Source of the DNA: Candidatus Aenigmatarchaeota archaeon
GTDB taxonomy: Archaea; Aenigmatarchaeota; Aenigmatarchaeia; Aenigmatarchaeales; Aenigmatarchaeaceae
Length of the DNA: 64,000 nt
Direction: 5' to 3'
Assembly (NCBI GenBank): GCA_043814985.1
Contig: JBDRJK010000019.1
Span: 56,561 to 120,560, forward strand
The translations under genes and the position numbers were made by a program. Numbering within the stretch: the stretch's first letter is position 1; the number at the start of each line of letters is the position of its first letter. Shown in pieces: positions 9,166 through 63,981 of this stretch. The notes beneath the pieces were generated by a model. The model saw only the letters and a list, made by a program, of their open reading frames with translations. It searched no databases and was not told where the DNA came from.

Positions 9166-10275
9166 TTAAGAAGAAATCAGAATCTTCAATGTTTTGAAAT
9201 CAGCATCAGTCTTTATGGCAGTTGGACAGAAATGAGTTCTTGACACCTTGAAGCCTTTTTTCTCAAGTTTTTTGAATAAATAATCCATTCTAGGTATCTT
9301 TGTTTTAAGGACCTTTGCCAGATAATGTAAATCATAGTAAAAGGCAGACATGTCAGCCTCATCTATTAATAGATTCAGGAGTTTCTCCTCTTGTTTCTCC
9401 AAATTGAAGTCCCTTTTTCTCAAGTCAGCAAGCACCTTCTTGCAGAACTTCCCATCTAGGATGCTTCCCAAGTATAAAGGACCAACTATCTTGAATTTTT
9501 CACCGCAAAAACACTTTTCCTTCAATTCTCCTTGCTCCCTATTGCCGCAGGAGCAGTCCATGACATAACCGAATTCCTTGAGTATGTCTTTCATTTTGCC
9601 CAGATGCTCTATTTTTCCATAAACTCTGAAATAGTGCTTTGTGGAGTGCATTAGTAATGGAACAAAGACCCTCTCTCTTTTTGACAGGGTCAGCATTATG
9701 TTGGTTATCAGTATCCTCATTCCCAGTTCTGGATAGTAATCTGTCTTCAAGGAACGGATTCCGTACTTTCTAAGGCATGTTAGAGGATAGGTTCCACATA
9801 GGGGAGCCTGATCAGTTGCAGTTACACAGAGAAAGCCTCTGTGGTATATTGACCTTGCAGCAGAATCAAGATAAGGTACGGGAGTTCCAAAGGGATCCAA
9901 ATCAATGACATTAAAGATGTTCTGATGAAAAAGAATATTCGCGTCTCCCTTGCTGGCCTTGCATTTCCTTGATAGCTTGTTCTCCTTTATGTTCTTTTTA
10001 ATTAGTTTCACAGCAACAGGGTTCTTGTCATTCAGGAAAACCTTTTCTATTCCCTTGATTTCCTTGGCATACCTTAACCCTCTTATACCAGTTCCTGCTA
10101 GGGCATCGCATATGGTTATCTTGTCCTCGAACTGCTCTTGGAAGGCATGTATTGCTGATATTGAGATGTCCCTCAGCAGCTCTGCCTCTGGGTTATAGAA
10201 TACAGGCACATCGTAAATTCTCCCCTCAGGAACCCAGAACTTTACTTTTCCTTCTTGGACTTTCTTCAGTTTCAT
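9166..10275 (-). CDS. trm1: tRNA (guanine26-N2)-dimethyltransferase Trm1
   Basis: FYNPEAELLRD, DALAGTGIRGLRYA SAM-binding motif, C-terminal Cys cluster; 369 aa. Confidence 0.85.
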   Translation of the reverse strand: MKLKKVQEGKVKFWVPEGRIYDVPVFYNPEAELLRDISISAIHAFQEQFEDKITICDALAGTGIRGLRYAKEIKGIEKVFLNDKNPVAVKLIKKNIKENKLSRKCKASKGDANILFHQNIFNVIDLDPFGTPVPYLDSAARSIYHRGFLCVTATDQAPLCGTYPLTCLRKYGIRSLKTDYYPELGMRILITNIMLTLSKRERVFVPLLMHSTKHYFRVYGKIEHLGKMKDILKEFGYVMDCSCGNREQGELKEKCFCGEKFKIVGPLYLGSILDGKFCKKVLADLRKRDFNLEKQEEKLLNLLIDEADMSAFYYDLHYLAKVLKTKIPRMDYLFKKLEKKGFKVSRTHFCPTAIKTDADFKTLKILISS

Positions 10276-10447
10276 AAAGAGAATTATGCCTTATCACTAT
10301 TAATTACCACTGCCAGTGGTAAAGGCTGTATTTATCATTTTTGGCTAAAGCTTTGAATAGTAATTTCATGAATTGTCGAATGTGCAAAAAAGATTTATAA
10401 GCATTAATTGACTACTAAGAATAAGTTGATTATCGAGGAGCTAAAAA

Positions 10448-11524
10448 ATGCCTGAAATTGACATCAAAAAATTCTTGCTGGAGAAAAAGCCCACTATTGA
10501 TAAAGTGGTTGAGAAGTGGATTCCCAAAAAATTTGACATGAATTTCATGGATTTTGTTTTTGGTAAAACAAGATACCAGTATAATGTTGATGTTGTTAAC
10601 AAGACTATTACCGAGCCCATTTGGGAGTTTTTGGAAAGGGGAGGAAAGAGATGGAGACCATCTTTGTTCCTTCTAGTTGTGGAGGCTTTGGGTGGTGACA
10701 AGGAAAAGGTCTTTGACTTTGTTGTGATACCAGAAATAATTCATAATGGGACTCTTTTTGTTGATGATATTGAGGACAGGAGCGAGTTGAGAAGAGGCAA
10801 GCCATGCATGCATTTGATGTACGGTATGGATGTGGCAATCAACACTGGCAACACTATGTATTATTTGCCTCTTTTGCCTCTGATCAAGCACAGAAAGGAT
10901 TTTGATTCAAACATACTTCTTAATGTTTACGAGACTTATGTCCAGGAAATGATAAACCTGGGTCTTGGGCAGGCCATGGACATAGCTTGGCATAATGGCA
11001 TATGCAATGCGGACAATCTCTCTGAGAAGGAATACTTACAGATGTGCGCTTTCAAGACAGGGACTTTGGCTAGGATGTCCGCCAAGATTGCTGCAATACT
11101 TTCAGGAGCTGATGACAAGCTTGTGGAAAATTTAGGCAATTATGCTGAGACAATCGGTATAGCGTTCCAAATACAGGACGATGTACTGAACTTGGTTGAG
11201 GGAGAGTTCACGGAGAATAAGGGGCTTGGTGAAGATATAACAGAGGGGAAGAGGAGCCTTTTGGTGATAAACACTTTAAACAAGGCAAGTCAAGAGGACA
11301 GGAAAAGACTTCTAGAGATTCTTGGCATGCATACTAATGTTCAGAAACTAAGGAATGAGGCAATATCCATAATCAAGAAATACGGTTCAATTGAGTATGC
11401 AAAGGAGAAGGCAAAAAAAATGATTATGGAGGCTTGGGAAGGCGTTGACAAACTTATTCCAGACTCGGATGCTAAGTTAAAGTTAAAGGCCTTTACTGAT
11501 TACTTGGTTGATAGAAAAATATAA
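10448..11524 (+). CDS. Polyprenyl diphosphate synthase (GGPP synthase-like) with N-terminal extension
   Basis: First DDxxD motif (FVDDIEDRSELRRGKP) and second (QIQDDVLN); SD-like GAGGAG upstream. Confidence 0.8.
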   Translation: MPEIDIKKFLLEKKPTIDKVVEKWIPKKFDMNFMDFVFGKTRYQYNVDVVNKTITEPIWEFLERGGKRWRPSLFLLVVEALGGDKEKVFDFVVIPEIIHNGTLFVDDIEDRSELRRGKPCMHLMYGMDVAINTGNTMYYLPLLPLIKHRKDFDSNILLNVYETYVQEMINLGLGQAMDIAWHNGICNADNLSEKEYLQMCAFKTGTLARMSAKIAAILSGADDKLVENLGNYAETIGIAFQIQDDVLNLVEGEFTENKGLGEDITEGKRSLLVINTLNKASQEDRKRLLEILGMHTNVQKLRNEAISIIKKYGSIEYAKEKAKKMIMEAWEGVDKLIPDSDAKLKLKAFTDYLVDRKI

Positions 11525-11535
11525 GGAGGAATAAT

Positions 11536-11688
11536 ATGGAGAATGACAATCTAAAAATGGTTTTAATAGATGCATCTGATGGACAGTGGGTAACTGTACC
11601 TAAACCAATTTACGAGACAGTAATAGAGGATAAGGGTTTCCTTGAAGGAAGACTTTATCTGTTAAGAAAAGAACATCCTAGTTTATAA
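11536..11688 (+). CDS. Small hypothetical protein (50 aa) with strong SD (AGGAGGA)
   Basis: Hand-translated MENDNLKMVLIDASDGQWVTVPKPIYE...; not in the ORF track (<60 aa). Confidence 0.3.
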   Translation: MENDNLKMVLIDASDGQWVTVPKPIYETVIEDKGFLEGRLYLLRKEHPSL

Positions 11689-11748
11689 TTAGCACCACCA
11701 AGGGTAGTAAATAAAATACATATTCCCTTAAATTGAATACTACATGTT

Positions 11749-12057
11749 ATGTTCCAAAAAATATCAGGAAACGTTTTAACTCCTGAAAAAATCAAAATTT
11801 TATTGAAGCTTAATAATATCATGATAAAGTTTTCCCCCTTCGAGGACCATACAGAGTTCGGCAGAAAGATTGAGGGTGAATTGAAAAAGAGATTCGGTAC
11901 ACATGGTTTGGAGTATGATTCAGAAAGTAACAAGTTTAGAGTCGAGGAAGGGAAAATCAGATGCATAACTCACGACTGTGGGAGCACCTGTTGCAGCGGT
12001 CTAGGAGATATTTTTTATGTTAGTGGAGAAGAACTTCAAGAGATTGCGAAAAACTAA
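11749..12057 (+). CDS. Hypothetical Cys-containing protein overlapping the mvk start
   Basis: ORF track only. Confidence 0.25.
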   Translation: MFQKISGNVLTPEKIKILLKLNNIMIKFSPFEDHTEFGRKIEGELKKRFGTHGLEYDSESNKFRVEEGKIRCITHDCGSTCCSGLGDIFYVSGEELQEIAKN

Positions 12058-13066
12058 GGCTTCTGCTCCAGGCAAGGTTATATTGTTCGGCGAACATGCT
12101 GTTGTCTATGATAAGCTAGGAATTGCCGCTTCTGTTGATTTGAATTGTCTTATTGAGGTTAGTACTAATAACGAGAATAAGGTTACCTATGAGATAAAGA
12201 AAATAGGAATGAAGAAGTCCATGACAAAGGAAGAGCTTTTCAATCTTTATGAAACTGTTGAAAGGCTCAAAAGAGAGGAAAGATTTGACGAAATAAAAGA
12301 ACTTCAAAAAAATGAAAAGCTAAACGCAGCCCTTTTCCTAATTTCTTCACTAATGAAGAAATACGGGTTTGTACCTATTGATGTGGTTGGTGATTCAGGC
12401 GTTACCAAGAACCTAGGTTCCAGTTCCTCAGCCTTTTCCGCGACTGCTATGGCAGTTTCAAAGTTTCTGGGAAAAGATATCTCTAAAGAGGATATTTGTG
12501 ATATGGCTTACCAGGGAGATGTGGTTGCTCATGGTGGCACGCCGTCGGGCATTGACAACTCCATTGTTACTTACGGTGGTTATATCCAATACAGGAAATC
12601 AAAGGGAATAAAACCTCTTGACATTAAGTTCAAGCTTCCTATAATTTTTGTGGACAGCGGTCAACCGTCCAGAACAGGTGAGACTGTTCCTTACATCAGG
12701 GACCAGAGAAATAAGAACAAGGAATTCGTTGACCAAGTTTTGGATAAGCTAGACAAAATCTCTATCCAAGCCTTGGACGCTCTGAAAGAAAATAAATTGG
12801 AATTGATAGGCAAGTTAATGCTGGAATATTATTCGGAATTGAAAAAGCTCAACATATCAACAGAAAAACTGGATGAGATAGTTGAGATCGCTATCAAGAA
12901 CGGAGCATTAGGAGCAAAACCAACAGGAGGATGGGGTGGAGGTTGCTGTCTGGTTCTTGCAAAGGATCAGGAACATGCAGATGAATTGGTAAAGATTTAC
13001 GAAGAGAACGGTTTTAATTCTTTCCAGACCAAAATAGGCGTAGAGGGTGTCAGGGAGATAAAATGA
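12017..13066 (+). CDS. mvk: Mevalonate kinase
   Basis: SAPGKVILFGEHAVVYD and GHMP-kinase motif LGSSSSAFSA; 349 aa. Confidence 0.85.
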   Translation: MLVEKNFKRLRKTKASAPGKVILFGEHAVVYDKLGIAASVDLNCLIEVSTNNENKVTYEIKKIGMKKSMTKEELFNLYETVERLKREERFDEIKELQKNEKLNAALFLISSLMKKYGFVPIDVVGDSGVTKNLGSSSSAFSATAMAVSKFLGKDISKEDICDMAYQGDVVAHGGTPSGIDNSIVTYGGYIQYRKSKGIKPLDIKFKLPIIFVDSGQPSRTGETVPYIRDQRNKNKEFVDQVLDKLDKISIQALDALKENKLELIGKLMLEYYSELKKLNISTEKLDEIVEIAIKNGALGAKPTGGWGGGCCLVLAKDQEHADELVKIYEENGFNSFQTKIGVEGVREIK

Positions 13067-13593
13067 GAATAGCAGTTGCAATTACAGGTGCTTCTGGCAG
13101 TGTTGTTGGTTTGAGATTAATAGAAGAACTAAAGAAGAAAGTTGAAGTTACAACAATAATATCAGATGCAGGTGAGAAAGTACTGAAAGAAGAGACAGGA
13201 ACTAAAATGAAAGCCGACTATGAGGAAGATGATATAGAGTCTCCCTTGGCGAGTAGCTCGAACATCGTAGATGCTTTCATAATATGTCCTTGCTCTGTGA
13301 AGACCCTGTCTGCAGTTGCCAATGGTTATACTAACAACCTTATTATCCGTTTGGCTGATATACAACTGAAGATGAGAAGGAAGTTGATATTGTGCATTAG
13401 GGAGACTCCCTTCAATCTCATGCACATAGAGAATATGAGAAAGGTTACCTTGGCCGGTGGAATCATAATGCCTTTGAACATCGCATATTATTCCAAGCCT
13501 AAAACCTTGGATGACGTTAATGATTTTTTTGTGGGCAAAGCTTTAGATTTAATTGGAATTGAAAACAAATTGTATAAGAGGTGGAAAGAATGA
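13063..13593 (+). CDS. ubiX: UbiX-family flavin prenyltransferase (prFMN synthase)
   Basis: MRIAVAITGASGSVVGLRLIE flavoprotein N-terminus; 176 aa; overlaps mvk stop. Confidence 0.8.
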   Translation: MRIAVAITGASGSVVGLRLIEELKKKVEVTTIISDAGEKVLKEETGTKMKADYEEDDIESPLASSSNIVDAFIICPCSVKTLSAVANGYTNNLIIRLADIQLKMRRKLILCIRETPFNLMHIENMRKVTLAGGIIMPLNIAYYSKPKTLDDVNDFFVGKALDLIGIENKLYKRWKE

Positions 13594-14840
13594 GTTTTAG
13601 AGGATTCATAAAAAAACTTGAAAATAACAATATGATTAAAAAAATCGAAGATGAGATTGATTTGAACTTGGGTCTTACCGGTTTTTTGAAAAATAAAACC
13701 CAGAGTTATGTTTTTGAAAACATAAGAGACTTTCCTAATTTTAAGATAGCCGCAAACCTTGTGACAGACAGAAAACATTTGGGCTTATCCTTTGATTGTA
13801 GTGAACAGGAAGTTGTAAAGAAGGTAGCCGATGCTATTAGAAATCCCGGAAAGTTGAATGAGGTAGACGATGCGCCATTTTTTGAGGTTGAAGCAAAACT
13901 ATCAGACCTACCAATACCTAGATATTTGCCTACAGATGGGGGTCCTTACTTATCGTCTGCTATTGTCTTTTCAAAAGATAAAGAACTTGGAGACAATGTT
14001 TCTTTCCATCGAATGATGGTAAAGGACGGAAGGATAATAATAAGGCTTGTTAAAAGACATACTTGGGAATTCTATGAGAGGTCAAATAGAAATTTGGACA
14101 TAGCGATATGCATAGGTCTTGACCCTGCTATTTTAGAGGCCGCTGCTGTATGCACAGATATAAGTGTATTTGAATTGCCAATAGCAAGCGCAATAATCGG
14201 AAAACCAATTGATGTTGTTAAATGTAGAACATGTGATTTGAAGGTTCCTGCTGAATCTGAGATAGTTATCGAGGCAACGATTACAGAGGAATGGGATGAC
14301 GAGGGGCCCTTCTTGGATATTACACTTACTCCTGACATAGTCAGAAGCCAGCCAGTGGTAAAGGTCAAAAAGATATTCCATAGGAAAAATCCTATATTTC
14401 ATGCTTTGCTTCCAGGCGGCTATGAACATGGAACAGTATGGAAAACGCCAACAGAGTCAGTCATGTTTAATGAAGTGAACAAAGTGTGTGCATGCAAGGA
14501 TGTCTTTCTAAGCTTTGGGGGATGCTCCCGTTTGCATGGGATGGTTCAGATAAAAAAGAAAAATAAGGAAGACGGACTAAGTGCTATAGAAGCTGCGTTC
14601 AAGGCGCATCCGAGCATGAAGCATGTGTTCATAGTTGATGAGGATATTGATATCTATGACATTAATGCAGTTGAATGGGCCCTTGCAACAAGATTCCAGG
14701 CAAAAACAGACTTGGTTATAAAACATGACTTAAAGGGTTCTACTCTGGATCCATCTTCTAGCAAGACGGGGAAGACATCCAAACTAGGGTTTGACTGTAC
14801 AATAAAAGGTGACCCAAAGGAATTCAGAAAAGTATTTTGA
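13581..14840 (+). CDS. UbiD-family decarboxylase (candidate trans-anhydromevalonate 5-phosphate decarboxylase)
   Basis: 419 aa UbiD-like; operon context between UbiX and AcnX genes. Confidence 0.7.
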   Translation: MERMSFRGFIKKLENNNMIKKIEDEIDLNLGLTGFLKNKTQSYVFENIRDFPNFKIAANLVTDRKHLGLSFDCSEQEVVKKVADAIRNPGKLNEVDDAPFFEVEAKLSDLPIPRYLPTDGGPYLSSAIVFSKDKELGDNVSFHRMMVKDGRIIIRLVKRHTWEFYERSNRNLDIAICIGLDPAILEAAAVCTDISVFELPIASAIIGKPIDVVKCRTCDLKVPAESEIVIEATITEEWDDEGPFLDITLTPDIVRSQPVVKVKKIFHRKNPIFHALLPGGYEHGTVWKTPTESVMFNEVNKVCACKDVFLSFGGCSRLHGMVQIKKKNKEDGLSAIEAAFKAHPSMKHVFIVDEDIDIYDINAVEWALATRFQAKTDLVIKHDLKGSTLDPSSSKTGKTSKLGFDCTIKGDPKEFRKVF

Positions 14841-14870
14841 TGAACTCCATATACAAAAATCGTCAATAAA

Positions 14871-15194
14871 ATGATTGTAATGATTGCTGGTAGGGGAAAA
14901 TATAAAGTTTGGCTAGAAAAGAAAAAGGTTGGCAAGGAGACAGTTTTATTTTTGTTTGGTGGAGAAAAACCGCATGTAGGCTGTGTTATAATAGTTGAAC
15001 CAAAGAGGAAAACTAAATTGATAAAATTTGATAACCATAAAGACTATATTGTTGCAAGACCTATTGCTGAAAAGTTTTGTAAAAAAACAAAGAGAAGAGT
15101 TGTTTGTGTTGCAGGAATCCATGTGGACAATGCGACAAAAGAAGAGATTAAGATTTTAGTTGACAACTGCAAAAAAATTGAGGAAAGGATATAG
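14871..15194 (+). CDS. Uncharacterised 107-aa protein embedded in the mevalonate operon
   Basis: ORF track; abuts the AcnX large subunit start (15195); no recognisable family. Confidence 0.4.
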   Translation: MIVMIAGRGKYKVWLEKKKVGKETVLFLFGGEKPHVGCVIIVEPKRKTKLIKFDNHKDYIVARPIAEKFCKKTKRRVVCVAGIHVDNATKEEIKILVDNCKKIEERI

Positions 15195-16391
15195 ATGGAA
15201 CTGACAAAAGAAGAGAGGGAAATGTTTGTTGGTGAAAGGGGAGAAGGCATACAAAAGGCAATGGAAATAATTGTTGCTTTAGGAAAGATATACAGTGCTG
15301 AAAGGCTCATAAGGGTTACAAGCGTTCAGGTTGCTGGTGTTAGCTACAAGAACCTGGGCGATGCTGGCATTGAATTTCTAGAGGATTGGGCAAGAAAGGG
15401 AGCAAAGATTTCTGTCAGAACTACATTAAATCCTGCAGGCATGGACTTGGAGAACTGGAAGAGATTAGGTTTCAAGGAAGAGTTTGCAAAAAAGCAGCTC
15501 AAAGTAATAGAGGCTTTCAAGAAGATAGGCATATCTCCTGTCTGCACATGCACACCCTACCTGATAGGCAACCTGCCAAAGTTCGGGGAGCATATTGCAT
15601 GGAGCGAGTCGTCTGCTGTTTCCTTTGCCAATTCTGTAATAGGAGCTAGGACCAACAGGGAAGGAGGTCCCTCTGCACTGGCAGCTGCAATAACAGGAAG
15701 GACAGCCTGCTATGGTTTTCATTTGAAGGAGAACCGCAAGGCAGACTTTGTCTTTGATGTGAAGTGCAAGGTTGATGGCTTCTCAGACTTAGGAGCTTTG
15801 GGGAACATTATTGGAAAATCTGTGAAAAACAAGGTACCATACATAATAGGTGTGAAAGAAGAGAATCAGGACAACCTGAAAGTTTTGGGAGCCTCAATGG
15901 CTGCTAGCGGTGCTGTAGCATTATACCATATTGATAATGTTACTCCTGAAGCTAAGATAAGGGACATGAGAAAGGAAGAATTCCAGACCATAGTCATTGA
16001 ATCCTTGGAAGAGGGCTACAAGTCTTTGAACTCTAACGAGAATGAGATAGACTTTGTTAGTATAGGATGCCCTCATGCTTCAGTTGATGAGATTAAGAAG
16101 ATATCAGAACTTGTCATAGGAAAGAAACTCAAGGCAGAACTGTGGGTCACAACCTCAAAACATGTCAAAAAGCTGGCAGACAAATATGTTAGGACAATAG
16201 AGCAAAGCGGCGGCAAGGTCCTAAGTGATACGTGTATGATTGTTGCACCAGTTGAGGATTTTGGTTTCAAGAATCTTGCCACAAACTCTGGCAAGGCTGC
16301 GTTCTATGCGCCTTCTTATTCTAAACTCAATGTCAGGTTCGGCTCGCTTGAACAATGTATTAATGCAGCATTAACAGGTAGATGGGAATGA
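15195..16391 (+). CDS. Aconitase X (AcnX) large subunit, phosphomevalonate dehydratase
   Basis: 398 aa; AcnX-type catalytic domain; coupled to the small subunit downstream. Confidence 0.75.
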   Translation: MELTKEEREMFVGERGEGIQKAMEIIVALGKIYSAERLIRVTSVQVAGVSYKNLGDAGIEFLEDWARKGAKISVRTTLNPAGMDLENWKRLGFKEEFAKKQLKVIEAFKKIGISPVCTCTPYLIGNLPKFGEHIAWSESSAVSFANSVIGARTNREGGPSALAAAITGRTACYGFHLKENRKADFVFDVKCKVDGFSDLGALGNIIGKSVKNKVPYIIGVKEENQDNLKVLGASMAASGAVALYHIDNVTPEAKIRDMRKEEFQTIVIESLEEGYKSLNSNENEIDFVSIGCPHASVDEIKKISELVIGKKLKAELWVTTSKHVKKLADKYVRTIEQSGGKVLSDTCMIVAPVEDFGFKNLATNSGKAAFYAPSYSKLNVRFGSLEQCINAALTGRWE

Positions 16392-16765
16392 AGGGAAGAA
16401 TAATAAAATTTGGAGATGTGGAAGGAGAGGCTATTGTCTCAAAAGAACCAATAAGCTTTTTTGGCGGCGTTGACCCGGATACTGGAATAGTTATTGAGAA
16501 AGGCCATTCTCTGGAAGGCAAAAACATCAAAGGAAAAATACTGGTCTTTCCCACAGGAAAGGGTTCCACTGTCGGTTCCTATGTCTTGTACAGGTTAAAG
16601 AAGAGCAATGTCGCTCCCTTGGGTATAATAAACGAGGAGTGCGAGCCCATAGTTGCTGTCGGTGCAATAATATCTGACATACCATGTGTTGACAAGATTG
16701 ACATAGGTAAGATAAATGATGGTGATATGGTCGTTATTGAGGGAGAGAAGGTTACCATCAAATGA
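16382..16765 (+). CDS. AcnX small subunit (DUF126 swivel domain) of phosphomevalonate dehydratase
   Basis: GEAIVSKEPISFFGGVDPDTGIV...LVFPTGKGSTVGSYVLYRL typical of PMDh small subunit. Confidence 0.75.
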   Translation: MGMKGRIIKFGDVEGEAIVSKEPISFFGGVDPDTGIVIEKGHSLEGKNIKGKILVFPTGKGSTVGSYVLYRLKKSNVAPLGIINEECEPIVAVGAIISDIPCVDKIDIGKINDGDMVVIEGEKVTIK

Positions 16766-16811
16766 CGATGCCATTAAAAAGGTATTAAAAGATTTGGACA
16801 TAAAGTGTATT

Positions 16812-17612
16812 ATGACGGACAACCTAATTTTGATCAAGCTCGGCGGCAGTCTTATAACAGACAAGAACACGCCCTTTACACCAAGACACGATGTTATCAA
16901 CAGACTGGCAAAGGAGATACACGAGGCCAGGCAGGAAAAGAAATTAAAGATTATTGTAGGACATGGTGGCGGTTCTTTCCCTCACAAGCCGGCAAAGGAC
17001 TATAGGACTAATGAAGGCATAGTGAACGGAGACAGTTTCAAAGGAATCTCTCTTGTCCAGGACGCGGCTTCTAAGCTTAATCGAATAATTGTTGATGCTT
17101 TGATAGATGCTGGCGAGAACGCTATTTCTGTGCAACCTTCTGCTTCCCTTATATCAGAGAACGGCAGGATAAAGGAGTGGTATCTTAAGCCAGTAACTGA
17201 GATGCTAAAAAATGATTTGTTGCCAGTACCTTATGGTGATGTTTCAATGGACACAAAAAAGGGCTGCTGCATAATATCCACTGAGGAGATTCTTAATTAC
17301 ATAGCAAAACATTCTTCTTTCAAGAAAATAATCCTTGCTGGTATAACCAATGGTGTGTATGAGAAAGACCCTACAATATACAAGGATGCCAAACTGATTC
17401 CTGAGATAAACTCGAAGAACTTCGAGGAAATCAAAAAATACCTTGGTGGCAGTACTGGGATTGATGTCACTGGAGGCATGCTCCACAGGGTAACTAGGAT
17501 ATTTGAGCTGTCAAAGTTCGGTACTGAATCTATTGTGATGAGCGGGGAAATAGAGGGCAACCTGAAAAGGGCTTTGCTTGGAGAAAGAGTAGGAACGCTT
17601 ATGAGATTGTGA
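16812..17612 (+). CDS. Isopentenyl phosphate kinase (amino-acid-kinase family)
   Basis: LILIKLGGSLITDK and GHGGGSF motifs; ATG at 16812 preferred (track start 16716 overlaps AcnX-S). Confidence 0.8.
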   Translation: MTDNLILIKLGGSLITDKNTPFTPRHDVINRLAKEIHEARQEKKLKIIVGHGGGSFPHKPAKDYRTNEGIVNGDSFKGISLVQDAASKLNRIIVDALIDAGENAISVQPSASLISENGRIKEWYLKPVTEMLKNDLLPVPYGDVSMDTKKGCCIISTEEILNYIAKHSSFKKIILAGITNGVYEKDPTIYKDAKLIPEINSKNFEEIKKYLGGSTGIDVTGGMLHRVTRIFELSKFGTESIVMSGEIEGNLKRALLGERVGTLMRL

Positions 17613-18139
17613 TTATGGAAGAGATAATTTCTGTTGTAGATGAGAAGGATATTTTACTGAGAGGAGAAGACAGGAAAAAAGTCCATGCTTCCACCTTTTG
17701 GCACAGAGGAATACATGTTTTTCTTTTCAATAAAAAAGGTGAGCTGTTAGTTCAATTGCGATCTCCAGACAAGGACAAATATCCCAATACTTTCGATTGT
17801 TCTGTCTCAGGTCATGTTGATTATGGAAATGGATATCTTGAGACCGCTAATAGGGAAATGAATGAGGAAGTTGGGCTGGATGGTTTAGATTTGGAACTGC
17901 TTGTGCATTTCAGGATGGTTTATGGTGATAGGGATTATATGATAAGCAAGCTTTTCAGGTGCGAATATGGTGGTGAGATAAAACCGAATGAAGAAGTTTC
18001 AGAAATAAAATTCTTGAAGATGGATGAACTGAAAAAAGCAATAATTGAGAAGCCTGATATGTTTACTCCTTGGTTTGTGGAAATGTTAAAATGGCATTTT
18101 AAGATGGAAAATAAGTTGCATATTCTTAAGGTTTATTGA
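17609..18139 (+). CDS. Nudix-fold protein resembling type 1 IPP isomerase (IDI-1)
   Basis: HRGIHVFLFNKKGELLVQLRSPDKDKYPNTFDCSVSGH..REMNEEVGL and C-terminal TPWFVEML align with IDI-1 conserved blocks. Confidence 0.5.
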   Translation: MIMEEIISVVDEKDILLRGEDRKKVHASTFWHRGIHVFLFNKKGELLVQLRSPDKDKYPNTFDCSVSGHVDYGNGYLETANREMNEEVGLDGLDLELLVHFRMVYGDRDYMISKLFRCEYGGEIKPNEEVSEIKFLKMDELKKAIIEKPDMFTPWFVEMLKWHFKMENKLHILKVY

Positions 18140-18146
18140 GAATTTT

Positions 18147-19187
18147 CTAAAGCTTTCTTTGATCAACCCAGTCCTTGACTTTTCCATCCAAAATGTATTT
18201 TGTATTTTTCAATTCTTCTATGTTCTTAGAGCCAGTCAAAAGCATTGTTGTCTTCAGCTCCTTTTCCAGTTTGTCAATATATTCTTCCACACCCTGTTTT
18301 CCTTTGGTTTTCAGAATCCTCAAGAAGGGTAAAGCTATGCCGCACATCTCCGCTCCAAGTGCAATTGATTTGGCAATGTCAACACCTGACCTAATCCCGC
18401 CCGTAGCAATTAGAGGCAGCCCTACTTTGGCTTCTATAATCGAAACAGGAGTCGGGATTCCCCAATTCTTGAAATTCTGGAACTCCTTGCCAGATATCAA
18501 GCCGTCAATAACAATCCAGTTAGTTCCCCCAAAACCTCCCACATCTATTGCCTTGACACCAGCTTCCTTAAGTTTCAAAGCAACATCTCTTGATATGCCA
18601 AAACCTACCTCCTTGCCAATAACAGGGTATTTCAAATCCTTGCATAAGTCCTTCAGAAAACATAGGCATTCACTGAAATTGGAGTCTCCGTTTTTCTGGA
18701 ATATCTCTTGGGAGGGGTTTATGTGAACGCAAAGGGCATTTGCTCCAACATATTTCAAGGCTTCCTCGATTTTATCAATGCTGAATTTCTTCAATTGATA
18801 TATGCCTACATTGCCGAAAAGCAGAACATTAGGAGCAACATCTCTAACATAGTAAGTATCCTTCAATTTAGGGTCTTCTATCATGGCTCTCTGGGATCCC
18901 AAAGAAAATCCAATACCTTTCTTCTCTGCTATTTCTGCTAGGTCCTTGTTTATTTTAGTTGCCTCTTCTGTCCCACCTGTCATTGATGCTATTGTCAGGG
19001 GTAATCTGAGTTTTGTTCCAAGAAACTCCGTGGTAGTGTCTATTTTTGCCAAATCCAATTCAGGCAAAGAATTATGAACTAGGTTAACATCCTCAAAACA
19101 TGCCTTATTGCTTTCAACATTCTCCTCTATGCATATCTTAAGATGGTCCTTTTTTCTTCTCTCCGTTGTCATAGTAATAGAATACAA
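18147..19187 (-). CDS. fni: Type 2 (FMN-dependent) isopentenyl-diphosphate isomerase
   Basis: N-terminal TERRKKDHL, ASMTGGT, GGFGGTNW motifs; 346 aa. Confidence 0.85.
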   Translation of the reverse strand: MYSITMTTERRKKDHLKICIEENVESNKACFEDVNLVHNSLPELDLAKIDTTTEFLGTKLRLPLTIASMTGGTEEATKINKDLAEIAEKKGIGFSLGSQRAMIEDPKLKDTYYVRDVAPNVLLFGNVGIYQLKKFSIDKIEEALKYVGANALCVHINPSQEIFQKNGDSNFSECLCFLKDLCKDLKYPVIGKEVGFGISRDVALKLKEAGVKAIDVGGFGGTNWIVIDGLISGKEFQNFKNWGIPTPVSIIEAKVGLPLIATGGIRSGVDIAKSIALGAEMCGIALPFLRILKTKGKQGVEEYIDKLEKELKTTMLLTGSKNIEELKNTKYILDGKVKDWVDQRKL

Positions 19188-19238: not shown

Positions 19239-19628
19239 TCAGAATTTGACTGTTTCTTTGGGAAATACCTTTCTAAATGATTCGTATACATTTTCATTTA
19301 ATTGTTTTTTTGTTTCTTTATCCAACTCATGGAGATACATATCCCCCCCTGCATGAGCTCTATCTAAACCTCCAATATTATTCAAGAAATCCAAATTGTC
19401 TGTGTTCGTTTTCCTTGCTCCTTTATACTGTGGAATCAGTTTTTTAGAATCAATATCATGAATCACAGAAAGAAGAATATTTTGCTCTCCATATCTTAGC
19501 AAAAGAGTTTGTTCTATACCATTCTTTGTAAAGAAATCTTTTCTATCTAAAACATTAAGTCCTCTTTCCTTAAGTTCATCAATTACTCGTCCTATATTGC
19601 CTTTTTTAGTTTCTTGTACCATAGCCAT
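19239..19628 (-). CDS. Hypothetical protein (second gene of a two-gene minus-strand cassette)
   Basis: ORF track; no recognisable family. Confidence 0.35.
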   Translation of the reverse strand: MAMVQETKKGNIGRVIDELKERGLNVLDRKDFFTKNGIEQTLLLRYGEQNILLSVIHDIDSKKLIPQYKGARKTNTDNLDFLNNIGGLDRAHAGGDMYLHELDKETKKQLNENVYESFRKVFPKETVKF

Positions 19629-19644
19629 ATTTTCACCAATTATA

Positions 19645-20019
19645 CTATTGGGATCCTATGCTGAGTTTCGGTATATCCAATCTCTTTTTCCCAATCCCTA
19701 ATCTTCCAAACAACTTCCATCTTGTTGCCTTTACTACAACTTCCTTTCCAACCCCACATTTTTTAATTTGTGTATGAATATATCTATTACAACTTGGTGA
19801 ATGTGGTCTTTTGACTTCTTTATACTCCATTAGAGCATTTTTATTCATATATCCCTCTGGTAAAATATACACATCTTGATTGCATCCTGGACATGGTATA
19901 CCCGTTTTTGCAACTCCACTACCCGGAACTTGTATAGGAATATCTATGTTGTAATTTACCAACGGGATTTTTTTCAGATTTGGTTCACCGTTTTCGTATA
20001 CAGTTTCTATTAATGACAT
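19645..20019 (-). CDS. Hypothetical Cys-rich protein (CPGC...C...C)
   Basis: ORF track; possible zinc-binding. Confidence 0.35.
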   Translation of the reverse strand: MSLIETVYENGEPNLKKIPLVNYNIDIPIQVPGSGVAKTGIPCPGCNQDVYILPEGYMNKNALMEYKEVKRPHSPSCNRYIHTQIKKCGVGKEVVVKATRWKLFGRLGIGKKRLDIPKLSIGSQ

Positions 20020-23007: not shown

Positions 23008-23085
23008 AACTTTTAAATAGTTTCTTTTTAATTAATAAACAACCCGGAAATGTGCCTAATAAGCTAAAACTGGGGGTGATATATT

Positions 23086-23667
23086 ATGGCATTTAAAATT
23101 GTAGTAAGCGAACCAAAAAGCAGAAAGGCTTGGCAGATAGAAAAAGAAGCGCCTTTGCTGGTTGGGAAGAAGATTGGGGAAAATTTCGACGGTTCTTTGA
23201 TAGGCTTGTCCGGTTTCAAGTTGCAAGTTACTGGCGGTAGTGACAAGGACGGCTTTCCAATGAGACCGGATTTGGACGGGTCGCAAAGGAAAAAGGCTTT
23301 GCTGACAAAGGGCATCGGTTTCAAGGGAAGGAAAAAGATAAAGAAGAAAATCTTCAAGGTCAAGGGCCTTAGAAAGAGGAAGTTCATAAGAGGCAACATA
23401 GTTTCTGACGATATAATGCAGATAAACTGCAAGATTGTGGAAGGAGAAGGTGACATTCCAAAGATATTGGGAATACAGCCAAAGGTAAAAGAGGGTGAGG
23501 AAAAAGCAGCAGAACAGCCTAAAGAGGAAAAGCCACAAGAGAAACCAAAAGAGGCTCCCAAGGAAGAAGCAAAACCTGTAGAGAAGAAAGAGGAACCCAA
23601 GAAGGAAGAGCCCAAACCAGAACCAAATAAAGAAGAAAGCAAGCCTGAAGAGAAGAAGGGTGAGTAA
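23086..23667 (+). CDS. rps6e: Ribosomal protein S6e with about 60-aa K/E/P-rich C-terminal extension
   Basis: MAFKIVVSEP...GFPMRPDLDGSQRKKALL matches S6e; SD GGGGGTGA upstream. Confidence 0.8.
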   Translation: MAFKIVVSEPKSRKAWQIEKEAPLLVGKKIGENFDGSLIGLSGFKLQVTGGSDKDGFPMRPDLDGSQRKKALLTKGIGFKGRKKIKKKIFKVKGLRKRKFIRGNIVSDDIMQINCKIVEGEGDIPKILGIQPKVKEGEEKAAEQPKEEKPQEKPKEAPKEEAKPVEKKEEPKKEEPKPEPNKEESKPEEKKGE

Positions 23668-24178
23668 ATTCAACAGGGAAATCGAGACCAAGTTCAGAGT
23701 GGATGAGAAACTCTCCTCCAAGCTAAAGAGTCTAAACCTTGTTCCACATGAAGAGATAGATGAATATTTCTTTACAAAGGAAAATGTTACTGGAAGCACA
23801 TATCTCAGGTTCAGAAAGAAAAAGGGAAAGGTGTTTCTTAATTTAAAGAACGTGATAATCGGTGGGACTGATGTTGACATCTATGAGTCAGAGGAAATTA
23901 TGACCGAATTGACAGCAGAACAGTATGAAAAATTAAGAAAAATATTTGAAATACTATTTCCCATAAAATTACAGGTAAGAAAAATAAGAAAGACTGGAAA
24001 ATACGGGCAATGTGAAATATGCCATGATTCTGTTGATGACTTGGGCGAATTTTTTGAAATAGAAGGCAGCAGAGAAAATATAAAGAAAGTCTGCGAAGAA
24101 TTAGATATTGATAATAGCTTGAGAGACAGAGAAAAGGGTTATGTTGAAATGACTTTAAAGAAAATGGGATTGAAATGA
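23660..24178 (+). CDS. CYTH-domain (CyaB/thiamine-triphosphatase-like) protein
   Basis: N-terminal EIETKFRV motif characteristic of CYTH. Confidence 0.55.
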   Translation: MSKFNREIETKFRVDEKLSSKLKSLNLVPHEEIDEYFFTKENVTGSTYLRFRKKKGKVFLNLKNVIIGGTDVDIYESEEIMTELTAEQYEKLRKIFEILFPIKLQVRKIRKTGKYGQCEICHDSVDDLGEFFEIEGSRENIKKVCEELDIDNSLRDREKGYVEMTLKKMGLK

Positions 24179-25400: not shown

Positions 25401-26810
25401 TTGTTTCTTATGAAAAAGCTGGTATTGTCATTTCTGGTCCTATCTATTATCTTGACACAAGTTGCATTTGCGCAAGATTTCAACATTGTTGTGGAACCTT
25501 CTGATTTATCACACTATGATTTTTTTGCCAGCCATACTGCTTACATAACAGTTACCATAAACAACCCAATGCCAGAGGACTGGTTCTCAATAATTGTGTT
25601 CGGATTTCCTAATGAATGGGTTGTTGCCAAGGAGTCCTTGGTAAAAATACCTTCTTACAGTAGCAAAACAGTACTTCTAGAGGTCAAACCAGCAAGAGAT
25701 GCCATACCTCAAGAAAAGGAATACCTGCTTAAGATTACAAGGCCCAGCACAGGTTCTGTATTAGAGCAAGCCATGCGCATAAATATCAAGCAGGTCACAT
25801 CAGCAATAATAAGGGACATTTCCCTGAGCTGCGAGACTTGCTCTGATGAAGTCATAGTTTCGGGTGATGCTCTTAATGTTGGCTCAAAATCGTTGACCAA
25901 CTTGGCTGTCATAGTAAAGGTTGCCAACCAGCAAAAAACATTTCCAATCAATAGGTTGGGTGTGCTAGAAAGCAAAGATTTTGCTCTCAGCTTCTCGTTA
26001 GATGGATTAAGTCCAGAAGAATATGATGTTGATTTTAACTTGGTCAATGATGTTGGCATGAGCTTTTACAAAGAAACAAAGACACTTAACATCCCTTCCT
26101 TTGAGAACGTCATCTATGATGAAGAGGTATCTACAACACCGTTCGGAAGCTCGGTGACTGTTACAGCAACCAACACCGGTAATGTTGTTGCAGAGGCTGA
26201 CTTGCAGTCTGTTTCAACAGAGGGATGGCATTATTTCATATCAGGCCCGACTCCAACAGGCATGATGCTCGGCAGTTATTTCTGGAAAGTAAGCTTGGCG
26301 CCTAACGAGTCCAGAAGCATAACCTACTCTGAAATCTACTGGCCAACTTATGTTCTGATAATTTCCGCTGTGATGATTGCAGTTTTCATATACTGGCAGT
26401 CAACAGCTTTGGTTTTCTCAAAAAGATTGATTAGGAAGTCTGGAAAAGAGGTCTCAGTCTCCCTTCACTTGAAGAGCAAGAAAAGGGGCGTTGGCAATGT
26501 TGTTGTCAAGGACAGTGTTCCTGCTGATTTCTCGATTGTCAGCAAGTTCGAAAGCGTTAAACCGCTCATAAGAAAGGTAGCAAGCGGGGTAGAGCTCCAT
26601 TGGAAGTTGGGAAGTCTGAGTCCACATGAGGAAAGAGTTCTCCATTACACATTGAAGCCAGCAAGGGAATTGTTTAAAGATGTAAAGCTACCAAGCGCAA
26701 AGGCAAAGGGTGTTAGACGCAAAGCACCTATTTACAAACGTTCTAACAGGGTTTCTATTCATCCCAAGAAAAGGGCAAAAGGCTTTGTCACAGTATCAGT
26801 CAAGGAATGA
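25401..26810 (+). CDS. Large secreted/cell-surface protein with C-terminal TM anchor
   Basis: Signal peptide, Thr/Ser/Val-rich beta-like repeats, TM near residue 330, basic tail. Confidence 0.45.
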   Translation: MFLMKKLVLSFLVLSIILTQVAFAQDFNIVVEPSDLSHYDFFASHTAYITVTINNPMPEDWFSIIVFGFPNEWVVAKESLVKIPSYSSKTVLLEVKPARDAIPQEKEYLLKITRPSTGSVLEQAMRINIKQVTSAIIRDISLSCETCSDEVIVSGDALNVGSKSLTNLAVIVKVANQQKTFPINRLGVLESKDFALSFSLDGLSPEEYDVDFNLVNDVGMSFYKETKTLNIPSFENVIYDEEVSTTPFGSSVTVTATNTGNVVAEADLQSVSTEGWHYFISGPTPTGMMLGSYFWKVSLAPNESRSITYSEIYWPTYVLIISAVMIAVFIYWQSTALVFSKRLIRKSGKEVSVSLHLKSKKRGVGNVVVKDSVPADFSIVSKFESVKPLIRKVASGVELHWKLGSLSPHEERVLHYTLKPARELFKDVKLPSAKAKGVRRKAPIYKRSNRVSIHPKKRAKGFVTVSVKE

Positions 26811-27146: not shown

Positions 27147-27262
27147 CCCCGTCTGGCTCAATGGTAGAGCGGTCGGCTGTAGCTTTTTACTGTTGTATTA
27201 AGCATTTAGCAACCGTTCAAACAGAAACCGACAGGTTGGGAGTTCGACTCTCCCGGCGGGGA
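27147..27262 (+). tRNA. tRNA-Tyr (GTA) with 44-nt canonical intron (27183-27226)
   Basis: Acceptor CCCCGTC/GGCGGGG, D-stem GCTC/GAGC, anticodon stem GTCGG/CCGAC, loop CTGTAG^A, T-arm GGGAG-TTCGACT-CTCCC. Confidence 0.6.
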
Positions 27263-27660: not shown

Positions 27661-27780
27661 TGGTTGCCGATCAAAGAGTGTAGGCAAGACCCGTTCCCAT
27701 TTCGAACACGGTAGTGAATCTACATTTCGATTTCGGTTGTACTGTCGAAAAGATGGGAACCCGAAGTAGTTGGCGACCAC
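27661..27780 (+). rRNA. 5S rRNA, stand-alone, embedded in a tRNA cluster
   Basis: Helix I pairs GGTTGCCGA with TTGGCGACC; loop C CCGTTCCCATTTCGAACACGGTAGT and TGTACTG...GGGAACC match archaeal 5S conserved blocks. Confidence 0.7.
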
Positions 27781-27929: not shown

Positions 27930-28187
27930 ATGGTCGTCATACTGAAGCTGAACAAAGGAACAGCAGAGAAGCTTTTGGAATTCACTTACATCAAGCCAGA
28001 GCAGTCTAGGAATCTCTCAGGCAAGGGACTGACATTGGAAATTGATGATAAGGACTTTTTGATAGAAATACACGAAAGGGAAAAGATGATAGAGATAGCG
28101 GACTATAATGGAAGCTTCGGGATATGGTTCAAGCTTACAAAGGAGAAAGTCAAGAAATTGAAGGAAATAGCAAAAATGGGCCCATAA
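27930..28187 (+). CDS. Small hypothetical protein between tRNA-Asp and tRNA-Lys
   Basis: ORF track (internal ATG chosen; the track N-terminus overlaps tRNA-Asp); stop overlaps the tRNA-Lys 5' end. Confidence 0.25.
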   Translation: MVVILKLNKGTAEKLLEFTYIKPEQSRNLSGKGLTLEIDDKDFLIEIHEREKMIEIADYNGSFGIWFKLTKEKVKKLKEIAKMGP

Positions 28188-28299
28188 CTCAGTTGGTAGA
28201 GTGCCAGGCTTTTATCTGTTAGATAAAAGCATGTGTAACGCGAAAGCGTGATGACAGGAAGAAACCTGGAAGTCGTGGGTTCGACCCCCACTGGGCCCA
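28178..28299 (+). tRNA. tRNA-Lys (TTT) with 49-nt intron (28215-28263) containing a C-box-like GTGATGA
   Basis: Acceptor GGGCCCA/TGGGCCC, D-stem ACTC/GAGT, anticodon stem CCAGG/CCTGG, loop CTTTTA^A, T-arm GTGGG-TTCGACC-CCCAC. Confidence 0.6.
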
Positions 28300-28305
28300 C
28301 TTTAT

Positions 28306-28415
28306 GCCGAGATAGCTCAGCCTGGTGGAGCGCCGGTCTCATAAAATCATTATGAGATTTGATCCCAAGATGATATGGAATCCGGAGGTCGAGGGTTCAA
28401 ATCCCTCTCTCGGCA
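28306..28415 (+). tRNA. tRNA with CAT anticodon (Met, or Ile2) carrying a 36-nt intron (28344-28379)
   Basis: Acceptor GCCGAGA/TCTCGGC, D-stem GCTC/GAGC, anticodon stem CCGGT/TCCGG (U31-U39), loop CTCATA^A, T-arm GAGGG-TTCAAAT-CCCTC. Confidence 0.55.
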
Positions 28416-33581: not shown

Positions 33582-33690
33582 GGGGTCATAGTCCAACCAG
33601 GCCAAGACGGCTGGCTCCAGTCATGGAGCTTTGATTCCGAAGATGAAAGGAAGAAACCAGCTGATGGGGGTTCAAATCCCTCTGACCCCA
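33582..33690 (+). tRNA. tRNA-Trp (CCA) with 35-nt intron (33621-33655)
   Basis: Acceptor GGGGTCA/TGACCCC, anticodon stem GCTGG/CCAGC, loop CTCCAG^A, T-arm GGGGG-TTCAAAT-CCCTC. Confidence 0.55.
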
Positions 33691-37947: not shown

Positions 37948-38808
37948 CTATGTTAATAGTTTCAATTCTTCCATTCTCTTCTTAGCATCTATCGAGCTTC
38001 TGAAAAGGTGCCAAAATATCTTTTGCAACCATTCAACCCATTGCTCATCATAAATATAGTAAAGAATGTACATCTTTTCTTTCATCTCGTCCTTTGAGTA
38101 GTCCTTGGGATCCAATGATTCCCTTAGGATAGCTACCTTGTTGTCTATTATGTTGCCTCTTATGGGATGGAAGCAGTGTCTTACCTCAACAACATCTCTT
38201 CCTGTCTTCTGGTTTATTGAGAGAACATTCTGTATATTGTCTATGCCTGCCAATTCCACCCTGTTCAAGAACTTCAGTGAAATTTTATCTTTGCCCATAA
38301 CCTCCAAAACATTAAAGATTCTCTTCTTTTGGTCTGTTAGGTTGACAAATGATAGATTCCCTGATAAAAATAATATTTGCTTCTCTGCTTGCCTGAGCTC
38401 GTTCACAAATTCTTTGAAATGCGAGGATGAACTATATTCTTTTTTATTGATCATCTTCATTTCTTTCTTGTCATTGTCAATGAACTGGAATATTTCTGAA
38501 GGGCTGAAGTCTTTGTGGTACCTGCCAAAAATTATTTGTTTGAAAAGTCTTTCTTGAATATTAGATGCATGGAATTTCTCCATATTATTCCAGAAAACAA
38601 CCTTTAGCGAGCCTCTGGTACCTCCCCTGAAGACCCTTGAGGAGATGGTTCCCTGTTCCTTTTCTATTTTTTCCACATAATTGTTGGCTGTTCTCCAGTT
38701 AATATTAATGTACTTCGCTATCTCATTGATGCTTCTAGGCTTCTGATAGACGAATTCATTGATTTTCTTTGTTATTTCCTTGGTTAGAACCATGCTAATA
38801 ATATACAA
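37948..38808 (-). CDS. Winged-helix domain protein (N-terminal HTH SINEIAKYININWRTANNYV), unknown C-terminus
   Basis: ORF track; HTH-like N-terminus. Confidence 0.4.
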   Translation of the reverse strand: MYIISMVLTKEITKKINEFVYQKPRSINEIAKYININWRTANNYVEKIEKEQGTISSRVFRGGTRGSLKVVFWNNMEKFHASNIQERLFKQIIFGRYHKDFSPSEIFQFIDNDKKEMKMINKKEYSSSSHFKEFVNELRQAEKQILFLSGNLSFVNLTDQKKRIFNVLEVMGKDKISLKFLNRVELAGIDNIQNVLSINQKTGRDVVEVRHCFHPIRGNIIDNKVAILRESLDPKDYSKDEMKEKMYILYYIYDEQWVEWLQKIFWHLFRSSIDAKKRMEELKLLT

Positions 38809-40755: not shown

Positions 40756-41164
40756 AATGACAAAAAAGCAAGAAGATATACAGAAGAAGGCAGTGCAATT
40801 CCAGATTTTGGAATCTAATTTGAAAATGCTTCAGGAAAGAGCAGGGGAAATCAACCAGAGGTTGAACGAATTCCTGCAGACCAAGTCAGCAATAGAGGAG
40901 CTGAAGACAACCAAGCCAGAAAAAGCCATGATACCCTTGGGAAGCGGGAACTTTATTTTCGGTACTGTTGAAAACAGCGATGACATAATTGTCGGCGTTG
41001 GAAGCGGTATTGCAGTAAAGAAAAAGAGGGAAGAGGCCTTGAAAATTCTTGATGCCAAGATAACAGAATCGCAGAATGCAATGAACGATATCACAAAAAA
41101 ATCCCAGGGTTTGATACAGAGCTTGGAAAGAATACAGCTTGAGATACAAGAGTTGCAGAGGTGA
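40745..41164 (+). CDS. pfdA: Prefoldin alpha subunit
   Basis: Coiled coil, central beta-hairpin region (MIPLGSGNFIFGTV...VGVGSGIAV), coiled coil; conserved position before ftsY. Confidence 0.6.
   Translation: MVSEMTKKQEDIQKKAVQFQILESNLKMLQERAGEINQRLNEFLQTKSAIEELKTTKPEKAMIPLGSGNFIFGTVENSDDIIVGVGSGIAVKKKREEALKILDAKITESQNAMNDITKKSQGLIQSLERIQLEIQELQR

Positions 41165-56852: not shown

Positions 56853-63981
<7,129 letters not shown>

Follow-up and report, generated by a model that had tools for sequence, protein, structure and literature searches.

LpdD of Lactiplantibacillus plantarum (lp_0272; PDB 8PO5, 8PZO, 8PZH, and 8P4W) is a chaperone of the gallate decarboxylase LpdBCD that binds reduced prenylated flavin, prFMNH2 (Gahloth et al. 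2024, PMC10865409). Purified LpdD binds prFMN in the reduced form only, is pulled down with E. coli UbiD, and supports activation of both apo-UbiD and AnFdc1 (PMC10865409). Its most strictly conserved residues fall in the loops at positions 8-11, 30-36, 54-62, and 89-95; His35, His61, and Asp63 bind Mn2+, conservation is strict for the two histidines, and metal binding is dispensable (PMC10865409). The lpdD gene is co-transcribed with the UbiX homolog gene lpdB, away from lpdC, and LpdD was reported to be only rarely found alongside UbiD (PMC10865409). Within this protein family, prFMNH2 binding and activation of apo-UbiD have been shown only for the L. plantarum protein (PMC10865409).

Other small accessory proteins are also encoded together with UbiD and UbiX. 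Like LpdD, the maturases PhdC and YclD raise the fraction of active holo-UbiD, and co-expression of either one activates E. coli UbiD with an effect similar to that of LpdD, but they act catalytically, oxidising the prFMN radical to its iminium form, whereas no catalytic role was found for LpdD (PMC13040415). VdcD-type small subunits, as in VdcBCD, are needed for decarboxylase function, and VdcD is the obligate partner of VdcC (PMC10865409).

One UbiD-type enzyme acts in the archaeal mevalonate pathway, the gene set of which consists of mevalonate kinase (MVK), phosphomevalonate dehydratase (PMDh; AcnX), anhydromevalonate phosphate decarboxylase (AMPD; UbiD), PFS (UbiX), and isopentenyl phosphate kinase (IPK) (PMC12547664). 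AMPD depends on the prFMN made by UbiX/PFS, and the pathway, which saves ATP, is being engineered into E. coli (PMC12547664). Here we describe an LpdD-family gene located within such a gene set.

A 107-aa ORF within an archaeal mevalonate operon

The DNA analysed, here called the window, is a stretch of 64,000 nucleotides from a Candidatus Aenigmatarchaeota contig. Family matches identified the following genes in and around the mevalonate operon of the window.

10448..11524, + strand: short-chain prenyl diphosphate synthase, GGPP synthase-like (NF040698 and NF041003, below the equivalog cutoffs)
12017..13066, + strand: mevalonate kinase, MVK (TIGR00549, 202 bits, above the cutoff of 163; GHMP kinase domains)
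13063..13593, + strand: flavin prenyltransferase UbiX, which makes prFMNH2 (Pfam Flavoprotein, 143 bits; NCBIfam UbiX, 199 bits, above the cutoff of 188)
13581..14840, + strand: UbiD-family decarboxylase, putative AMPD (Pfam UbiD_N, UbiD, and UbiD_C; TIGR00148, 331 bits)
14871..15194, + strand: LpdD-family protein of 107 aa, putative prFMNH2-binding chaperone (PF21758, fold, site residues, and dN/dS)
15195..16391, + strand: AcnX large subunit, i.e., phosphomevalonate dehydratase large subunit, 398 aa (PF04412, 524 bits)
16382..16765, + strand: AcnX small (swivel) subunit (PF01989, 124 bits; NF003046, 184 bits, above cutoff)
16716..17612, + strand: isopentenyl phosphate kinase, IPK (NF040647 IPPK_Arch, 210 bits, above the cutoff of 120; AA_kinase)
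17609..18139, + strand: Nudix protein related to type-1 IPP isomerase (NUDIX Pfam; TIGR02150, 71 bits, below the cutoff of 106)
18147..19187, - strand: type-2 IPP isomerase (TIGR02151, 394 bits, above the cutoff of 281)

The cluster is tightly packed and co-directional except for the type-2 IPP isomerase gene, which lies on the opposite strand. The archaeal mevalonate gene set is complete and contiguous from 12017 to 17612 (MVK, both subunits of AcnX, UbiD, UbiX, and IPK), and the UbiX, UbiD, and LpdD-family genes follow one another directly. Two of the called starts are probably too early: UbiD likely begins at 13590, with an ATG that overlaps the stop codon of UbiX, and IPK near 16812. A preliminary description of the locus, made without database searches, had placed the 107-aa ORF between a UbiD-like decarboxylase gene and AcnX inside the mevalonate operon, and the family matches of the neighbouring genes bear this out.

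The UbiD protein of the window is 42 to 49% identical to UbiD proteins of many archaeal phyla, the genes of which adjoin MVK or AcnX/IPK in the three contexts that were inspected. In databases, these relatives are named "UbiD family decarboxylase" and occasionally "2,5-furandicarboxylate decarboxylase 1," and the closest solved structures (6h6x and 6h6v) were deposited under a generic UbiD name. As names and structures alike are generic, the assignment rests on context, and we infer from the surrounding genes that the window UbiD is AMPD.

The Nudix gene at 17609-18139 is absent from the closest genome, L008, the alignment of which covers window positions 9168-17637 and resumes at 18123, skipping approximately 490 bp. 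The window thus carries both a Nudix type-1-like gene, which L008 lacks, and a bona fide type-2 IPP isomerase gene. A 102-aa ORF just upstream of MVK and two small ORFs after the type-2 isomerase gene were without a family match.

The 107-aa ORF starts with ATG and extends from 14871 to 15194 on the + strand, and its translation was the same as that reported earlier. A second in-frame ATG is present at codon 4 (14880), and relatives are mostly 105 aa long, such that the start is fixed only to within a few codons. The UbiD stop codon and the ATG of the ORF are separated by 30 nt and do not overlap. At the other end, the TAG stop codon (15192-15194) directly abuts the ATG of the AcnX large-subunit gene at 15195 (...GAA AGG ATA TAG ATG GAA...), and the DNA thereby confirms the 15194/15195 junction given in the preliminary description. 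Because the two genes abut in the window and lie within a few nucleotides of each other or overlap in 47 of 74 related loci, translational coupling to AcnX is plausible. Such coupling, proposed earlier as co-translation, reflects the packing of the operon and not a partnership with AcnX.

The 107-aa protein is an archaeal member of the LpdD family

The 107-aa protein had been described as uncharacterised and without a recognisable family, and profile searches and structure prediction had been proposed as a way to place it. The protein scored 98 bits on the Pfam profile PF21758 (cutoff, 27 bits; E = 3.6e-28), with residues 8-105 aligned to profile positions 2-108 of 115. PF21758 is named "PAC_bac" in one copy of Pfam and "LpdD_chaperone" in precomputed Pfam matches, and some relatives are listed in UniRef as "prenylated flavin chaperone LpdD." A phmmer search of PDB sequences returned only the L. 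plantarum LpdD entries 8p4w, 8pzh/8pzo, and 8po5 (E = 5e-5). An NCBIfam scan of the protein gave no match, and thus the curated NCBI models would not name it.

Structure prediction led to the same family. An AlphaFold2 model made from a 40-sequence alignment had a mean pLDDT of 96.3 and contained six strands and two helices. When the model was compared to the PDB with Foldseek, the six best matches were all LpdD chains (TM 0.82 to 0.86; rmsd 2.0 to 2.6 Å), and next in rank were yeast Pba3/4 and human PAC3/4 (TM 0.45 to 0.63). Pba3/4 is likewise named as a structural neighbour in the LpdD paper (PMC10865409).

The motifs of the window protein, G7-x-G9, G30-G31-E-K-P-H35-x-G37, H56-K-D58, and G82-I-H84-V-D-N, include the LpdD metal site, as His35, His61, and Asp63 of LpdD are kept as His35, His56, and Asp58. 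Seven residues (G30, G31, H35, G37, H56, G82, and H84) were invariant across three alignments of 17, 40, and 43 homologs that reached down to approximately 25 to 30% identity. In the 40 closer homologs, conservation of D58 was at least 90%, and the sole substitution seen was Glu.

Homologs of the protein are plentiful. A k-mer word-indexed protein search returned 39 homologs, all of which carried PF21758, and a profile search of 1.84 billion cluster representatives (50% identity level) returned 1637 matches with E ≤ 1e-3 and 859 with E ≤ 1e-10. Moreover, when species-representative genomes were scanned with a motif pattern, 185 stretches with relatives were confirmed. L008, the genome fragment nearest to the window, shares 84% DNA identity with it over 8.5 kb, and the LpdD-like orthologs of the two share 89% protein identity. 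Comparison of the two orthologs gave a dN/dS of 0.09 (dN 0.052; dS 0.58), which indicates purifying selection on the gene.

Profile, fold, metal-site residues with their loops, and linkage to UbiD or UbiX (see below) all agree with the LpdD family. We conclude that the 107-aa ORF encodes an archaeal LpdD-family (PF21758) protein. The label "uncharacterised" is therefore superseded by the PF21758 match, the LpdD crystal structures, and the 2024 biochemical paper (PMC10865409). Pfam-based annotation would already assign the protein to this known family.

The window protein resembles LpdD in its Pfam family, its fold, its four conserved loops with the His/His/Asp residues, and the proximity of its gene to UbiX and UbiD, but it differs in several respects. 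Identity to LpdD is only approximately 20 to 26%, the window protein has 107 aa compared to the 136 to 142 residues of the deposited LpdD chains, and the 5-residue insertion before the second histidine is absent. The window protein is archaeal, and its presumed UbiD partner would act on an aliphatic phospho-acid in essential isoprenoid biosynthesis, unlike the catabolic aromatic-acid decarboxylase served by LpdD. Finally, the window gene follows UbiD, whereas lpdD is co-transcribed with lpdB and lies apart from lpdC (PMC10865409).

The gene travels with UbiD rather than with AcnX

Gene neighbourhoods were compared at 87 related loci, of which 80 came from species-representative genomes and 7 were retrieved through exact-protein look-ups; pathway homologs were located by tblastn. 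The 80 genome loci were the best 80 of the 185 confirmed motif-scan matches, and 63 of them have record titles, from which the taxon labels are taken, that read Thermoplasmat* or Methanomassiliicoccales. The upstream side was visible in 82 loci, and in 80 of these the gene immediately preceding the LpdD-like gene, on the same strand, was UbiD, a figure that covers the closest subfamily only. In called genes, UbiD and the LpdD-like gene usually overlapped by approximately 17 nt, and one offset recurred in 59 of 85 loci. MVK preceded UbiD in 74 related loci. The two loci without an upstream UbiD belong to Methanomethylicaceae, and in both the LpdD-like gene is convergent with, and overlaps, UbiX.

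Linkage to AcnX was looser. The AcnX large-subunit gene was directly downstream in 50 of 81 loci and was not adjacent in the remaining 31, where it started approximately 0.2 to 3 kb further on while the LpdD-like gene stayed attached to UbiD. Where called, the intervening genes encoded TruD (opposite strand), an M28 peptidase, or a 696-aa protein without a recorded Pfam family. As linkage to UbiD (80/82) exceeds that to AcnX (50/81), the gene tracks the prFMN enzymes and not the dehydratase. Of the accessory roles that the preliminary description had offered, those for the decarboxylase and for prFMN handling accord with the LpdD family and the upstream UbiD, and that for the dehydratase is disfavoured by the 31 loci in which AcnX is separated.

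Linkage of the LpdD-like gene to UbiD is lineage specific. In the mevalonate clusters of one Micrarchaeia and one Freyarchaeum genome, UbiD was followed directly by the AcnX large subunit with no LpdD gene between them, and the closest UbiD from beyond the clade of the window (59% identity) has no LpdD gene downstream. Conversely, the LpdD-family genes of a Freyarchaeota MAG, Desulfolucanica, and Biomaibacter have neither UbiD nor UbiX nearby. No fusion to UbiX or UbiD was found among the long family members examined. The only multidomain case was P0277, a family representative of 335 aa in which a distantly related LpdD-family sequence is joined to a MobA-like NTP-transferase domain (PF12804, 128 bits), a hint that the fold may serve other cofactor pathways. 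Together, the orphan members and the MobA-like fusion suggest that the LpdD family may have wider roles.

We note that the Freyarchaeota LpdD-family gene (L088, 7512-8164), an Asgard representative, is separated by 18 nt from a small 4Fe-4S ferredoxin gene upstream; the Freyarchaeum mevalonate cluster described above belongs to a different genome. Separately, a 117-aa ORF between UbiX and UbiD in the Micrarchaeia cluster was considered as a divergent LpdD and rejected (hhalign probability, 0.2%); it looks like a membrane protein.

A putative prFMNH2 chaperone for the mevalonate pathway decarboxylase

Homology to LpdD and gene order suggest a function, and we consider it likely that the 107-aa protein serves as a chaperone that binds prFMNH2 and uses this cofactor, made by UbiX, to load or activate the neighbouring UbiD-type AMPD. 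The protein would be a small dimeric beta-sandwich that binds prFMNH2 produced by the UbiX encoded two genes upstream. The oxygen-labile prFMNH2 might be captured at the conserved loops on the surface, among them those of the His35/His56/Asp58 metal site, and, once bound, would be shielded from unproductive one-electron oxidation. The cofactor would then be handed to the apoenzyme of the UbiD-type decarboxylase, whose gene lies immediately upstream, and the resulting holoenzyme would presumably convert trans-anhydromevalonate 5-phosphate to isopentenyl phosphate.

Three observations count against a chaperone: the low identity to LpdD, the mevalonate clusters that lack an LpdD gene, and the orphan family members. 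Moreover, constructs that carry the Methanosarcina mazei pathway in E. coli contained AMPD and a UbiX homolog only and no LpdD-like gene (PMC12547664), and a chaperone is therefore not a general requirement.

An alternative with a modest share of the probability, and on balance an unlikely one, is that the LpdD-like protein is a stable subunit of the decarboxylase, a role that is compatible with cofactor delivery and overlaps that of a chaperone. The overlap of the gene with the end of UbiD in most relatives is typical of proteins made in a fixed ratio, but the window genes are 30 nt apart, and in Methanomethylicaceae the gene pairs with UbiX instead of UbiD. VdcD, an obligate partner, is the precedent for a subunit, but it constitutes a separate family, not known to be related to LpdD, and the window protein matches the LpdD Pfam family. 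That LpdD and E. coli UbiD pull down together favours a stable complex, but LpdD acts on non-cognate UbiD enzymes and was reported to have little or no role in gallate decarboxylation itself (PMC10865409).

A stronger form of dependence on the protein seems doubtful. [quoted passage not shown] Many of these Thermoplasmatota genomes were recovered from sediments that are probably anoxic. If the protein were obligatory, its gene would be the seventh one dedicated to the archaeal pathway in Thermoplasmatota and would give a handle on how UbiD enzymes become activated in strict anaerobes.

A role as a helper or assembly protein of the AcnX phosphomevalonate dehydratase, perhaps serving its [4Fe-4S] cluster, is highly improbable. 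The abutting stop and start codons and the 50 of 81 loci with AcnX directly downstream would fit such a role, but in the other 31 loci the two are not adjacent, with unrelated genes on either strand between them where genes were called, while the gene still follows UbiD. Moreover, no link between the LpdD family and Fe-S enzymes is known. The ligand characterised for the family is prFMNH2 (PMC10865409).

The older Pfam name of the family, "bacterial proteasome assembling chaperone-like," raises the PAC3/Pba3-type chaperones, for which we see next to no prospect. Like the window protein, Pba3/Pba4 and the eukaryotic PAC3/PAC4 have a similar beta-sandwich with flanking helices and form dimers, and one bacterial homolog had a weak PAC4 Pfam match, but the LpdD fold is much closer. 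Unlike the window protein, they lack the His/His/Asp loops, which are LpdD features, have no significant sequence similarity to it, and have a different client; furthermore, no proteasome gene was present among the window ORFs scanned, and the gene is linked to UbiD or UbiX.

Lastly, that the ORF is spurious and unexpressed, as its short length and the lack of a clear Shine-Dalgarno sequence upstream of either candidate ATG might suggest and for which absence of conservation in related genomes had been named as a sign, is refuted almost with certainty, as far as computation can show, by the dN/dS, the hundreds of homologs with invariant motifs, the high-confidence predicted fold, and the kept synteny.

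We conclude that the LpdD homolog, putatively a prFMNH2-binding chaperone, is a near-constant neighbour of the mevalonate UbiD in the best 80 of 185 matches, mostly labelled Thermoplasmatota. An LpdD homolog is thus placed in an essential lipid-precursor pathway and not in a catabolic side route for aromatic acids. The LpdD (PMC10865409) and PhdC (PMC13040415) papers do not mention archaea or mevalonate, and neither a 2024 survey of archaeal mevalonate genes nor the engineering paper (PMC12547664) lists an LpdD-like component. In the open-access literature searched, nothing was found on an LpdD-like protein or prFMN chaperone in archaea, and no paper was found with both "LpdD" and "mevalonate." Within that literature, the mevalonate-operon context of an LpdD homolog appears to be unreported; an earlier report elsewhere is possible.

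Co-expression of the LpdD-like gene would be a cheap and testable way to raise the amount of active decarboxylase in E. coli engineered with the archaeal pathway. The locus also offers a natural system for asking why some UbiD enzymes need a cofactor chaperone when orthologs in other archaea apparently do not.

Other features of the window

Six ORFs had no Pfam or NCBIfam match at E ≤ 1e-5: 25401-26810 (+), 40886-42202 (-), 23056-23880 (-), 37948-38808 (-), 11749-12057 (+), and 19239-20019 (-). The ORF at 40886-42202 overlaps an FtsY-like gene on the other strand, and some of the matchless ORFs, those overlapping annotated genes of the opposite strand, may be spurious.

Rfam models matched nine tRNAs and a 5S rRNA (27663-27778) in the window. 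Four of the tRNA matches were 109 to 122 nt long and were missed by ARAGORN (27147-27262, 28178-28299, 28306-28415, and 33582-33690, all +), which fits archaeal tRNAs that carry introns and cluster around the 5S gene.

A 1911-aa ORF at 58246-63981 (-) contains Rpb2 domains 1-7 (aa 14-1083) followed by Rpb1 domains 1-5 (approximately aa 1206-1889). The ORF is an apparent in-frame fusion of RNA polymerase subunits B and A', with the junction near 60700-60730, and the A'' gene is next at 57093-58241. The junction reads through with neither a stop nor a start in frame, and a TAG-ATG sequence lies one base out of frame; one added G at the junction would give a normal A' start and a TGA stop for B. 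The B/A' ORF is either a real fusion or the product of a 1-nt assembly error.
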